NCBI GenBank assembly: GCA_045047115.1
Contig: JASFYR010000009.1
Span: 64,001-128,000 of the forward strand
Reading direction: 5' to 3'
Source of the DNA: Sulfurospirillum sp.
GTDB lineage: Bacteria > Campylobacterota > Campylobacteria > Campylobacterales > Sulfurospirillaceae
Length of the DNA stretch: 64,000 bases
Shown: positions 60,667-64,000 of the stretch, piece after piece
How the letters are laid out: the number at the start of each line of letters is the position of its first letter
Position numbering within the stretch: the first letter of the stretch is position 1
The notes under the pieces: generated by a model
Told to the model about the DNA's origin: nothing
Databases searched by the model: none
Seen by the model: the letters and a program-made list of their open reading frames with translations, nothing else
Position numbers and translations under genes: made by a program

Positions 60667-61317
60667 ATGAATTTGATGGTATTTGGTGCACCTGGAGCAG
60701 GCAAAGGTACTCAGGCAAAATTTTTAGTAGAAAAGTACAATATCCCCCAAATCTCGACAGGAGATATGCTAAGAGCCGCTATAGCACAAAAGAGTGTTAT
60801 GGGAATGGAAGCTAAAAAATACATGGATAACGGTGAATTGGTTCCGGATTCCACAATCATAGGAATTATAAAAGAGAGATTGGAAAAAGATGATTGCCAA
60901 AATGGCTTTATTTTAGATGGTTTTCCAAGAACTTTAGCCCAAGCTCAAGCACTTGATGTATTGATGGAAGAGAGTGGCAAAGAGTTGGATTTTGTTCTTT
61001 CGTTTGATGTACCTGATGAATTGATTATAGAAAGAATCGCAGGTAGAAGAGTATGTCCAAAGTGTGGAGCCTCATATCATATAGAGTTTAATCCTCCAAA
61101 AACTAAGGGAACATGTGATGCCTGCGGAGCAGAGTTGATAACTAGAGAAGACGATAATGCAGATACTGTTAAAAACAGACTTGCAAACTATCACAAGCAA
61201 ACCGCTCCTTTGATAGACTTTTATAAAAAAATGGGAGTTTTTGCTCAGATAGATGGTTCACAAGAACTCAGTAAAGTAACAGAGGATATGTTTAAAGTTT
61301 TGAAAAAAAAGTACTAA
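60667..61317 (+). CDS. adk: Adenylate kinase, long form with zinc-finger LID
   Basis: GAPGAGKGTQA, STGDMLR, LDGFPRT, CPKC..CDAC LID, REDD. Confidence 0.93.
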   Translation: MNLMVFGAPGAGKGTQAKFLVEKYNIPQISTGDMLRAAIAQKSVMGMEAKKYMDNGELVPDSTIIGIIKERLEKDDCQNGFILDGFPRTLAQAQALDVLMEESGKELDFVLSFDVPDELIIERIAGRRVCPKCGASYHIEFNPPKTKGTCDACGAELITREDDNADTVKNRLANYHKQTAPLIDFYKKMGVFAQIDGSQELSKVTEDMFKVLKKKY

Positions 61318-61323
61318 GTCTTA

Positions 61324-61359
61324 TATAGCCTTACAAATTATTAGTTTTGTGAGGCTATA
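61324..61359 (+). terminator. Putative terminator hairpin after the second adk
   Basis: TATAGCCTTACAAA-N8-TTTGTGAGGCTATA. Confidence 0.65.
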
Positions 61360-61472
61360 ACTCTGAGCATTTGGACAGTTGACACCTCTATGACACAGTT
61401 TGTAGATATTATGTTGTGTATGTAAGGAGTCAACTATAAAGAAACCTAACTAAAAAAGATTGATTTAAAGTT

Positions 61473-62669
61473 TCATTTAGAAACACTATAAGCTAAATTT
61501 TCATCAAATTTAGTTTTGTTCTTTAAAAGTATAAATATTGTTTTTAAAAGTTTATTGGCAACGGCTATAACAGCTTGTTTGAATTTTTTACCTTCTTCTC
61601 TTTTTTTAGTGAAGTAAGCATTGAATTTTTCACAGGAACGGATCGTTCCAATTGCCATTTGCCAAATAGTACGACGAAGGTTGGCATTACCTCTTTTTGA
61701 GATTTTGCCTCTATAGTTAACTGAAGTACCACTCTGTCTAACAGATGGGTCAATTCCAATAAAAGCACAAAGTTGCTTTACAGATTTGAACTTATCAACA
61801 GAGGATACTTCAACCATAAAGTTTTTAGAAGTTACTGCACCAATGCCAGGTATTGATTGTAAAAGTTCAATATCATCATTAATATCAGTATCTTCTAAAG
61901 AGTTTCGCAGCTCTTCATCAAGTATAGATAGTTCATTTTGAATGGTGATTAATCTTCTTATTTTAGAAGTTAATACCTTTTCAAGATACTTATCAGATAC
62001 AGCAATAGAGTTCTTTGCAAGTGAGAGTATCTCATCTGCAGTGATTTTAACTTTATTGCCACTGGTACTATCTAGTAGTTTTTGAATTTTCTGCTTCTTC
62101 AAGTTCCTAACAGCCTTACGGCTAGGAGCTTGAAGAAGCAGATTTAAAATGCTTTTTGTAAATATGTTTGTGAACTTTGCCAATTCTGGAAACAGTTGAA
62201 CTAAGTTAGCTTTTATTTCAGTTTTAAGTCTGGCTATCTCTTTAGAAAGTGATTCTCGCTCTCTAATAAGAGGTCTGATGCTTTCAATTGCATCAGGTGT
62301 AGCTAGATGCAATGACTGATATGATTTTAAACTAAATAGAGCAATTGAAGTAGCATCTTTTTTATCATTTTTAGTCTTTCTAAGAGTGGTTGAACCAATA
62401 AAACTCTTTATGAGTATTGGATTTATAACCACACTTTTAAAACTATTTTCTAATAAAAAAGAGAGTAATGGTAAATGATATATACCAGTAGCTTCCATTG
62501 ACACTAAGAGCTTATCTTTGGAATAAGATGATAGATATTCTAATAGAGTATCAAATCCTTTTCTATCCATTGTAAGTTTCTCTTGTAGTTTAATTTCTCC
62601 ACTACCCTCAAGTAGTGTAATATCAAAGCTATCTTGACTAATATCTATTCCACAGAATTGTTTATACAT
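61473..62669 (-). CDS. IS110-family transposase/recombinase
   Basis: RuvC-like DEDD (GIDIS, MEATG, KNDKKDA), coiled coil, SIPGIG HhH, PSVRQSG catalytic Ser, ISKRGN, AVANKL; ATG at 62669 follows AAGGTG. Confidence 0.95.
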   Translation of the reverse strand: MYKQFCGIDISQDSFDITLLEGSGEIKLQEKLTMDRKGFDTLLEYLSSYSKDKLLVSMEATGIYHLPLLSFLLENSFKSVVINPILIKSFIGSTTLRKTKNDKKDATSIALFSLKSYQSLHLATPDAIESIRPLIRERESLSKEIARLKTEIKANLVQLFPELAKFTNIFTKSILNLLLQAPSRKAVRNLKKQKIQKLLDSTSGNKVKITADEILSLAKNSIAVSDKYLEKVLTSKIRRLITIQNELSILDEELRNSLEDTDINDDIELLQSIPGIGAVTSKNFMVEVSSVDKFKSVKQLCAFIGIDPSVRQSGTSVNYRGKISKRGNANLRRTIWQMAIGTIRSCEKFNAYFTKKREEGKKFKQAVIAVANKLLKTIFILLKNKTKFDENLAYSVSK

Positions 62670-62693
62670 CACAAACACCTTTACAAGTTATTT

Positions 62694-62881
62694 TTACATG
62701 TAAACAGATAAGCAATCTTGCTTTTATCCTATCTCCATAATGACAGAGGCTCGAAGCCTAATCAACCTATTGGGATTACGAGCAAGTGATAGACTCCTTG
62801 GAGATTTAATAAAACTTCATTAAAAGTTCTATCATTGATCTAAAAAAAATGTGATCATCTTGCTTATCTCTTTACATGTAA
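62694..62881 (-). ncRNA. Candidate IS110 bridge RNA
   Basis: 22-bp inverted repeat (one mismatch) enclosing a small hairpin and two stem-loops with internal loops carrying target-like and donor-like sequences; -10 TATAAT at 62881-62886 on the minus strand. Confidence 0.7.
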
Positions 62882-62910
62882 TTATACAAAATTTATTAGT
62901 AGGAGTTCAA

Positions 62911-64000
62911 ATGTCAATAGATATAAAAGATCTTGCAAAAAATAGTAAGAATTTGAAACTTCTTTATGTTGAAGATGATAAAAATGCTCGTGAAACCACT
63001 CTAAAACTACTTGATAATTTCTTTAACAATATAACAATAGCTATTGATGGAAAAGATGGTATAGAAAAATTCAAAAACAAAAAGTATGATTTGATTTTGA
63101 GTGATATTAATATGCCAAATATCAATGGTTTGGAAATGTTAAAAAATATTAGAAAATTGGATACAGAGGTATCTGTTTTGCTGCTTTCGGCACATAATGA
63201 CAGCGATTATTTTTTAGAAGCAATTGAACTGGATGTAGATGGCTATATTTTAAAGCCCTTGGTTTTCAAGCAATTTATAAAAGTTCTATTTAAAATAGTT
63301 CAAAAAATTAATCTTTTAGCTTTGAACGAAAACTATCAAAAACATCTCGAAAGTGAGGTAAAAAAAAGAAGTGCAGAATTAGAACACAAGTTGTATTTTG
63401 ATTCTCTTACAGATCTTTTGAGTCGATATTCATTTTTTAAAGATATCGAAAAATTGGATTTACCAGTGATTCTTTTGCTTAATATTGATAAATTCAAAGT
63501 GATAAATGAGGTTTACGGCATAGATGTCGGTTCAAAAGTTTTACAAAAGTTTGCAGATTTTTTAAAGTTGATTATTAAAGATAATTCGTGTAAGTTATAT
63601 CGCTTATCTGCAGATGAATTTGCAATTGTAGATACAACAAGACATATTGATACAGAAAAATACGAAGAGTTGATAAGAGATATCTTCAAAAAACTTCACT
63701 ATTTTAAAATGTCAATAGATAAAAATATTATTTCCATAGATATAACCATAGGTCTTTCAACGGTTGAAAAAAATGGCTATGAAAGTGCAAAAATAGCATT
63801 GGACTATGCTAAAAAACATAAAAAATCTTTTATGATGTACTCCAGTGCTATAGATTATCGTAAAGAAAACAGTGCAGCTTTAAAATATAGAGATAAAATT
63901 TCTCTTGCTATTGATGAAAACAGGATAGTTGCAGTATATCAGCCTATAGTTGATAAAAATATGCTGATTGTAAAATATGAAACATTGATGAGATTGAAAG
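62911..64000 (+). CDS. Response regulator with receiver, degenerate GGDEF and EAL domains (3' end outside the window)
   Basis: Translated by hand from ATG 62911: LLYVEDD, ILSDINMPNINGLEM, YILKP; DSLTDL, NIDKFKVINEVYG, YRLSADEF; YQPIV..YETLMRL. Confidence 0.9.
   Translation, partial: MSIDIKDLAKNSKNLKLLYVEDDKNARETTLKLLDNFFNNITIAIDGKDGIEKFKNKKYDLILSDINMPNINGLEMLKNIRKLDTEVSVLLLSAHNDSDYFLEAIELDVDGYILKPLVFKQFIKVLFKIVQKINLLALNENYQKHLESEVKKRSAELEHKLYFDSLTDLLSRYSFFKDIEKLDLPVILLLNIDKFKVINEVYGIDVGSKVLQKFADFLKLIIKDNSCKLYRLSADEFAIVDTTRHIDTEKYEELIRDIFKKLHYFKMSIDKNIISIDITIGLSTVEKNGYESAKIALDYAKKHKKSFMMYSSAIDYRKENSAALKYRDKISLAIDENRIVAVYQPIVDKNMLIVKYETLMRLK

Follow-up and report, generated by a model that had tools for sequence, protein, structure and literature searches.

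The question raised by this locus is what is encoded by a highly structured, non-coding segment on the minus strand (62881-62694) of a 64,000-nt stretch of Sulfurospirillum sp. DNA (contig JASFYR010000009.1, positions 64,001 to 128,000; the whole stretch is referred to as the window). The segment lies upstream of a recombinase gene, in the left end (LE) of an insertion sequence (IS) of the IS110 group, for which bridge RNAs were described in 2024 (Durrant 2024, PMC11208160; Hiraizumi 2024, PMC11208158). A preliminary description of the window had proposed an IS110 bridge RNA programmed to the complement of AAGGAG ribosome-binding sites, and this proposal is supported by the covariation of guides with flanking DNA and by all 40 of the distinct insertion sites compared. 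Very probably, the segment encodes the bridge RNA of an intact IS of ~1.48 kb that is aimed at ribosome-binding sites, with transcript and activity predicted from the sequence. Positions below are those of the window (features in Table 1); related loci, genomes and contigs carry L, G and C numbers, respectively.

Structure of the RNA

A 221-nt stretch folded at -60.7 kcal/mol (z = -5.68), a value that none of 200 shuffles equalled. A search of positions 61000-64000 against Rfam 15, with E values up to 10, gave chance-level matches only and none within the bridge-RNA region. Left ends of related elements, whose recombinases are 38% to 92% identical, were aligned, 18 sequences at first and then 27. 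The MAFFT alignment of 27 rows (A3) was used to build a covariance model, which matched 93 of 100 related loci, all of them blank in Rfam. The 93 matched rows, 90 of them distinct, make up the second alignment (A4), which was fitted to the model and in that respect favours structure. The model matched 62692-62879 with 200.1 bits, the sole match in both the window and the genome.

The long outer stem of the preliminary description was borne out. Its arms form 21 of 22 pairs by direct reading, and a separate repeat analysis reported an inverted repeat of 27 nt with 89% complementarity. Both sides were changed in 11 of the 21 pairs of this closing stem on A3 and in 18 of 19 on A4, where 89% of cells were paired. 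Pairs 1-5, which overlap the -10 box, showed 0 or 1 both-side change each on A3, and from the sixth pair onward such changes were common (pairs 6-9, 4 to 8 rows); the onset fits an RNA start near 62876-62873.

The same repeat could work as DNA, the recombinase binding it as a sub-terminal inverted repeat or cruciform in the manner of IS1111 elements. The arms are a near-perfect DNA palindrome pair, and the first five pairs, in the -10 box and upstream of the predicted start, do not covary. However, the repeat lies 24 nt inside the left end and has both arms in that one end, unlike sub-terminal repeats at two ends, and covariation begins about where the RNA should start. Relatives also keep G-U pairs, which are A-C mismatches on the other strand. 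These pairs are numerous on A4 (20, 53, 31 and 23 rows at four pairs) and therefore point to an RNA on the minus strand rather than a DNA palindrome. A role as DNA is scarcely credible on this evidence.

Between the arms, a target module is followed by a donor module. In the stem-loop of the target module, AGAT/ATCT becomes AGGT/ACCT in relatives, and the optional hairpin inside it is missing from 66 of the 90 distinct rows of A4. The donor module has a 13-nt 5′ strand and a 17-nt 3′ strand. Its stems CTTGCT/AGCAAG and AGGC/GCCT, both already proposed in the preliminary description, are present and change on both sides in relatives: on A3 in 3 of 6 and 4 of 4 pairs, and on A4 in 6 of 6 and 4 of 4, respectively, with ATCC/GGAT changing in 4 of 4 pairs on either alignment. 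For the whole fold, 92.3% of cells were paired on A3 (35-41% with the partners slid) and 32 of 52 pairs were changed on both sides, giving a covariation score of 0.279 compared to at most 0.082 when slid. On A4, the corresponding values were 86.6% (37-51% slid), 42 of 45 pairs, and 0.377 compared to at most 0.097. The observed scores were reached by 0 of 500 shuffles on A3 and by 0 of 500 on A4. Folding the MAFFT alignment de novo with RNAalifold recovered four helices: the two stems of the target module, and the inner stem and the hairpin of the donor module. A closing stem around a target and a donor module is shown by this covariation.

The exact architecture first proposed was different. 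It consisted of a 5′ hairpin TGATC/GATCA, a target loop closed by TGATAGA/TCTATCA with an inner TTAAT/ATTAA hairpin, and GAACT (62829-62825) as the left guide. These helices can form in the sequence of this copy and were 86.6% paired on A3. For TGATC/GATCA pairing reached 92%, and 3 of its 5 pairs had changes on both sides; GAACT does equal the left flank GAA of this copy plus CT. However, rows that lack the optional hairpin also lack the closing helix and the inner hairpin (gaps in 9-14 of 27 rows); these two helices show near-zero compensatory change and are broken in 3-7 rows, among them L005, L026 and L015. The hairpin with GAACT is the one missing from most rows, and other copies having GAACT are flanked by unrelated sequences on the left; in the author's reading of the flanks, no other copy has a left flank ending GAA. 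The pentamer is best read as a chance match in the 5′ arm (62832-62824) of a dispensable hairpin, and the true guide as 62853-62842. TGATC/GATCA, although well paired, competes with the two 4-bp helices of the target module, which covary better, are present in all rows at 96-98% pairing and were found de novo; it may be an alternative pairing. The 12-nt strand that these helices expose matches left flanks at up to 12 of 12 positions. Hardly any likelihood is left to the architecture in its original form. The IS621-like order of target module before donor module stood, and the 5′ hairpin ahead of the target module found no confirmation.

Two further complementarities were observed within the fold. 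The hexamer AGCAAG and its complement occur twice each (62865-62859, 62786-62781, 62722-62717 and 62715-62710), and the four copies change jointly, to AGTAAG/CTTACT in L046, L049 and L078 and to GCAGG/CCTGC in L026. The duplication allows the 5′ arm to pair with the start of the donor module, a pairing that RNAalifold prefers. As a general fold this candidate was rejected: it is impossible in relatives of the L111 type, where the segment differs, and the closing stem is for that reason taken as the general solution. A local switch between the two pairings may exist. In addition, CTATC (62792-62788, after the right target guide) is complementary to GATAG (62733-62729, after the right donor guide). 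By eye, this complementarity is kept in L026 (CTGTC/GACAG) and L015 and broken in L050 and L053, and it may be an inter-module contact or chance.

Guide strands and flanking DNA

To compare the right target guide with the junctions, the 8 nt preceding the handshake bases were reverse-complemented and matched to the core plus right flank, and the flanks were permuted among elements. The guide of L050 predicts CTTTCTTA, and its right junction reads CTTTCTTT, a match of 7 of 8. For L119 and L093 all 8 positions matched, and for L015 6 of 8 plus a wobble. Over all rows, 436 of 568 positions matched for the right target guide (permuted mean 301) and 628 of 986 for the left (permuted mean 503). In both cases 0 of 10,000 permutations reached the observed value, a count that, like those that follow, overstates significance and is not a true probability because the relatives are not independent. 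The covariation of guides with flanks among homologues, on which the preliminary description had staked its proposal, was accordingly found.

The signal was also present within classes. In a sister class (class 2) comprising 51 rows (L111, L112, L125, L131 and ~47 other metagenome loci), with recombinases 35-41% identical and guides ending CAG, the observed value was reached by 0 of 10,000 permutations for both guides with only the variable positions counted. In the GAG class, 1 of 10,000 permutations reached it for the variable positions of the right guide. For the left guide the number was 7 of 10,000 with all positions and 688 of 10,000 without the last six. The site of the sister class is near-palindromic, with a left flank ending CTTC, the core CT and a right flank GAAGTC or GAAATC; its flanks read CT GAA or CT GTA.

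On the left side, the guide strands of L085 and L121 match the left flank plus core at 12 of 12 positions, and those of L140, L149 and L087 match it over a run of 10 nt. The left guide of the present copy consists of C-A-C-A followed by eight U. The trinucleotide CAU stands at the same guide position in 15 of the 22 distinct strands of its class compared to 0 of 32 in the sister class, which hints at a putative contact with the start codon.

A different explanation is that the region is a mere 5′ leader of the recombinase mRNA, controlling its translation or stability, with site choice left to the protein. The region does adjoin the recombinase start on its upstream side, and no terminator-like site intervenes; a strong fold would suit a leader, and a separate transcript is so far a prediction. 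However, a leader provides no reason for loop strands to change in step with the flanking DNA among relatives with different targets. The architecture is, moreover, that of a two-module bridge RNA, and the homologous IS621 enzyme is RNA-guided according to the published accounts of its mechanism (PMC11208160, PMC11208158). A leader of this kind is considered very improbable.

The preliminary description had read AAGGAGT (62799-62793) as the right guide. The first six bases stand as such, and the final T fits better as a handshake base for the donor. In the descriptions of IS621 strand exchange, the right target guide is followed by two handshake bases, whose partners once strands have been exchanged are donor positions 6-7 (PMC11208160, PMC11208158), and by analogy with the role described in PMC11208158, UC at 62792-62793 would act in this way. 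These positions read TC in 32 of 37 GAG-class rows, and 91 of 93 rows have U at the first of them. On the donor side, the handshake G of other subgroups stands opposite a target C throughout (11 of 11 and 48 of 48 rows); the A of the present subgroup faces A, C, G or T in the target.

The donor guides of the preliminary description (62767-62760, 8 nt with two wobbles, and GGAG) do match the junction of right end (RE) and LE of this copy. The 5′ strand of the donor module holds GGUUGAUU, followed by the hairpin and by the 3′ strand holding GGAG, which is complementary to the core plus LE start, CT CC (62905-62902). Four variants of the left donor guide account for 83 of 93 relatives, and each of the four can form Watson-Crick or wobble pairs with the invariant RE end. 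As to the right donor guide, L015 has GAAG in place of GGAG where its LE start is CT TC, the only such row in the flank comparison.

Insertion sites in ribosome-binding sites

Left flanks were counted if they were distinct, with a left end of the CTCCTAC type and with a guide of the GGAG type or a contig end. In all 40 of these flanks, a CAT was found 4-10 nt from the core, as expected from the predicted insertion immediately ahead of start codons, and the insertions lie within a Shine-Dalgarno sequence. The pattern excluded L053 and L101 (CAT in range), L082 (CAA at 5 nt, no CAT) and L013, L048 and L102 (no flank). As background, a CAT lies in the same range at 302 of 1,154 CTCCTT sites of the host genome (26%), and 273 of 1,153 such sites precede an open reading frame (ORF) of at least 60 codons. 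The left end faces the gene at all 40 sites; insertion orientation is constant.

The spacing between CAT and core was 5 nt at 14 sites, 6 nt at 14, 7 nt at six, 8 nt at three, 9 nt at two and 4 nt at one, a distribution that mirrors the ordinary ribosome-binding sites of the host genome. Reading of the start codon at a fixed spacing by the left guide of the present element was considered and rejected on this ground, no register preference being seen.

The insertion cuts the downstream gene off from its former upstream sequence. With strand exchange at CT and CCT as the first bases of the left end, the gene nevertheless keeps AGGAG at an unchanged spacing.

The element and its boundaries

The recombinase has full-length matches to the Pfam domains DEDD_Tnp_IS110 (1.5e-32) and Transposase_20 (1.4e-24), and its homologues among solved transposases are those of IS621 (8wt6, E 6.8e-29) and ISCro4 (9t56, E 1.3e-29). 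The non-coding left end upstream of the gene measures ~234 nt and contains the bridge-RNA region; the right end measures 43 nt. The long left end, the short right end, the guide RNA in the left end and the absence of long sub-terminal inverted repeats at both ends are traits of the IS110 group (PMC11208160).

Homology among full and contig-end copies in other genomes spans 62905 (start) to 61424 (end). In an orthologous empty locus of a same-genus genome, the left flank aligns to the junction and the right flank resumes with the next base from the core. Given the limits of copy homology and this contiguous empty site, the element was delimited as 62905-61430 with one core copy. The CT core that the preliminary description had assigned to both target and donor was seen at both sides of the element. 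The left end begins CT CCTAC, the right end closes with ATAGTTGA and then CT, and CTCCT is common to both junctions.

Table 1. Features of the element, its RNA and its left flank, in window coordinates
Feature	Position	Strand	Remarks
IS110-group insertion sequence	61430..62905	minus	one CT core copy (62905-62904) plus body; ~1.48 kb
Second CT core copy	61429-61428		right junction
Recombinase gene	61473..62669	minus	398 aa from ATG; GTG further upstream at 62678
-10 box TATAAT	62881..62886	minus	perfect; predicted bridge-RNA promoter
Bridge RNA (predicted)	62694..62881	minus	predicted start near 62876-62873; 3′ limit set at end of closing stem
Closing stem, 5′ arm	62860..62881	minus	pairs with 62715-62694
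Closing stem, 3′ arm	62694..62715	minus	pairs with 62881-62860
Target-module base stem TGAT/ATCA	62854..62857 with 62790-62787	minus	4 of 4 pairs changed on both sides; 96-98% paired
Left target guide, U-rich	62842..62853	minus	12 nt; ends UU (wobble to core); CAU 7 nt before 3′ end
Target-module stem-loop AGAT/ATCT	62802..62841	minus	around optional hairpin (62832-62809)
Right target guide AAGGAG	62794..62799	minus	complementary to core plus right flank CT CCTT, 61429-61424; 6 of 6 in this copy
Handshake bases UC (putative)	62792..62793	minus	complementary to GA preceding core at RE end
Donor-binding module	62717..62786	minus	CTTGCT/AGCAAG, ATCC/GGAT, large internal loop, hairpin AGGC/GCCT (62759-62747)
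Left donor guide GGTTGATT	62760..62767	minus	8 nt, two wobbles; matches RE end plus core
Right donor guide GGAG and handshake positions AU	62731..62736	minus	GGAG 62736-62733; AU 62732-62731
Left target: spacer TTGAA plus CAT	62906..62913	minus	spacer 62910-62906; CAT is complement of ATG (62911-62913, plus) of response-regulator/GGDEF gene
Rebuilt ribosome-binding site AGGAG of downstream gene	62901..62905	plus	core plus first 3 element bases; same in all 40 sites
Response-regulator/GGDEF gene	start 62911, to 63999	plus	downstream of left end of element

Matches to the element were found in 19 of 60 related genomes (20 of 61 including its own), and a blastn search of a plasmid collection gave none. 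Within its own genome it is single-copy by DNA, by RNA model and by Pfam family. The RNA could be a bridge RNA by descent and this copy nevertheless an immobile, silent relic, since the genome has only this one and its expression is a prediction. However, the reading frame is open over its full 398 aa, the RNA is among the highest-scoring of its family (200 bits), and all guide strands are identical to those of multi-copy relatives. A relic is thus held to be unlikely.

The whole element separates the response-regulator/GGDEF gene from its upstream intergenic region (61318-61423), which ends at the adenylate kinase gene at 61317.

Promoter and transcription

In the circular form, the RE end (TTGA) and the CT core would together give a -35 hexamer with 5 of 6 consensus matches and a 17-nt spacer to the -10 box. 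In the integrated state, this place is taken by TTGAAC from the flank, at a spacer of 18 nt and with a promoter match of 10 of 12. We infer that a sigma-70-like promoter would be rebuilt across the RE-LE junction, by analogy with IS621, for which a promoter across this junction is described (PMC11208160). A search for an outward promoter toward the downstream gene gave none that was convincing. Thirteen RNA sequencing runs each shared a small part of the sequence words. Contigs from four metatranscriptome runs cover related elements (85-99% alike), including the bridge-RNA region; they end at 62904-62906 and 61423-61427 with unrelated loose ends.

Variant and decayed copies

In four close relatives, L054 (967-1188), L051 (966-1188), L077 (600-822) and L084 (644-866), an insertion of ~35 nt in the hairpin loop of the donor module makes the hairpin longer. 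Two copies are decayed: L025 (1528-1703, genome G046) has unrelated sequence in place of the 3′ half of the donor module, and in L081 (134-320) both donor guides are mutated, with ATAG for GGAG. A variant lineage comprising L038 and L039 (genome G011) and L015 (genome G021) has a left end reading CT TCTACC, not CT CCTACT, the G011 copies being represented by the first ~50 nt only. The same-genus genome G003 contains at least four left ends (contigs C5, C18, C27 and C44) and two right ends (C33 and C40) at or near contig ends, with ~125-177 nt of element sequence apiece, as though a multi-copy repeat had interrupted the assembly.

Close copies (86-92% protein identity) were found in contigs labelled Sulfurospirillum, Arcobacteraceae, Campylobacterales, Thiotrichales and Candidatus Gracilibacteria, and a 50% relative in a contig labelled Candidatus Delongbacteria. 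This spread suggests horizontal transfer or binning errors.

Discussion

Several points weigh against a bridge RNA that is active and aimed at ribosome-binding sites. Besides the fitting of A4 to the model and the non-independence of the permuted relatives, noted above, the -10 box and the target module are separated by nothing but the 5′ arm of the closing stem, and the 5′ stem-loop of the IS621 consensus, as that consensus is described, is missing. This was not taken to exclude membership because published variants, in the catalogue cited below, deviate from the IS621 fold. The left target guide matches the flank of its own copy at 7 of 12 positions, including ACATTT across the start codon. 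Over 21 sites of the close subgroup the mean is 5.67 (summed by the author), hardly above the 5.18 of CAT-bearing CTCCTT sites (3.89 at other CTCCTT sites), and recognition on the left side is therefore weak or absent in that subgroup; the guide mildly favours T-rich spacers but does not choose among ribosome-binding sites. The left donor guide lacks true covariation because the RE end is invariant, and covariation of the right donor guide amounts to a single compensatory case, L015. The 100% rate of ribosome-binding sites could to a large extent be due to insertions in coding DNA being selected against. The metatranscriptome contigs cannot reveal the start, end or level of a transcript or its true expression, and the activity of this copy is unproven because it is single in its genome.

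On the favoured reading, the excised element would circularise, and TTGA and the CT core would form a -35 box 17 nt upstream of the -10 box, with transcription predicted to begin near 62875. In the target module, a 4-bp stem leads into the 12-nt 5′ guide strand, and a stem-loop separates this strand from the 3′ one, which has AAGGAG followed by UC. As in the IS621 mechanism, AAGGAG would pair with top-strand CT-CCTT, the complement of the Shine-Dalgarno sequence, and the U-rich left guide would pair loosely with the spacer and the start-codon side. With the donor guides paired to the RE-LE junction, the recombinase would swap strands at the CT core. The element lands inside the ribosome-binding site of a gene, where its first bases, CT CCT, restore AGGAG at the original spacing.

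A broader scenario is offered tentatively, as one that we expect to fail more often than to hold. In it, a clade reaching beyond one phylum would read the whole translation-initiation region, the right guide being the Shine-Dalgarno sequence and the left guide keeping CAU at 5-nt spacing. In Campylobacterales, the left guide would have relaxed to a U-tract, making nearly any ribosome-binding site usable, and the rebuilt AGGAG would make insertion nearly harmless. The closing stem would serve the excision of the guide RNA from the recombinase transcript, for example by RNase III.

The locus provides a natural example of a bridge RNA that appears to be aimed at a generic regulatory motif, not at a unique site. 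With specificity lying mostly in the 6-nt right guide and the left guide nearly free, it bears on how much guide is needed, which matters for the off-target behaviour of bridge recombinases as tools. It also offers an RNA-level explanation for IS110 elements that land on translation start signals, and for annotation the covariance model finds the RNA in related loci that have no Rfam annotation. In a literature search for a link between bridge RNA guides and Shine-Dalgarno sites, with figures and supplements outside its scope, the sole mention concerned a riboswitch.

Comparison with known systems

Bridge RNAs are a kind already known and widely catalogued, and the RNA described here is well supported as a further member of the family. 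A catalogue in preprint form comprises 32,190 bridge RNAs in 86 covariance models, and many of these depart from the IS621 fold and nevertheless covary with target and donor (bioRxiv 10.64898/2026.10.21.760802). The seekRNA of IS1111/IS110 elements is likewise a non-coding RNA that selects the target (Siddiquee 2024, PMC11187229), and the present RNA, from the same IS family, is set beside it by that description only. The RNAs of the IS1111 group are located in the right end (PMC11208160); unlike these, the present RNA lies in the left end and has two large internal loops.

The resemblance to IS621 is close, as far as that system is described in the two papers of 2024. In both, the RNA is encoded in the left end upstream of a DEDD/Tnp recombinase, with the target module first and the donor module second, each module consisting of a stem followed in turn by a 5′ guide, a stem-loop and a 3′ guide. 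The guides span the CT core, those on the 5′ side being assigned to the bottom strand and those on the 3′ side to the top strand. Two handshake bases, putative in the present RNA, come directly after the right target guide; sequence varies in the first loop and is conserved in the second; and a promoter would be rebuilt across the RE-LE junction, here at the level of sequence. The differences, within the same descriptions, are that a closing stem of ~16-22 bp joins the 5′ and 3′ ends in place of a 5′ stem-loop, that the base stem of the target module has just 4 bp, and that the right target guide, which carries most of the specificity, is 6 nt long compared to 4 nt in IS621. The left guide is a U-tract ending UU and nearly free, target and donor share 5 nt (CTCCT), beyond the core alone, and the recombinase is ~70 aa longer.

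IS900 of Mycobacterium avium inserts between the ribosome-binding site and the start codon, in one orientation. It reportedly targets translation initiation signals, to go by the title of a 1997 paper by Doran (cited in PMC2942039). IS900 is a member of the IS110 family and carries a long antisense gene, hed, that is served by host signals (PMC8141618); the present element, in contrast, has antisense ORFs of 41, 51 and 47 aa, none of which begins near the right end. What the two have in common, going by the description of IS900 only, is the placement of insertions between ribosome-binding site and start codon and their single orientation, which in the present family holds at 40 of 40 sites.

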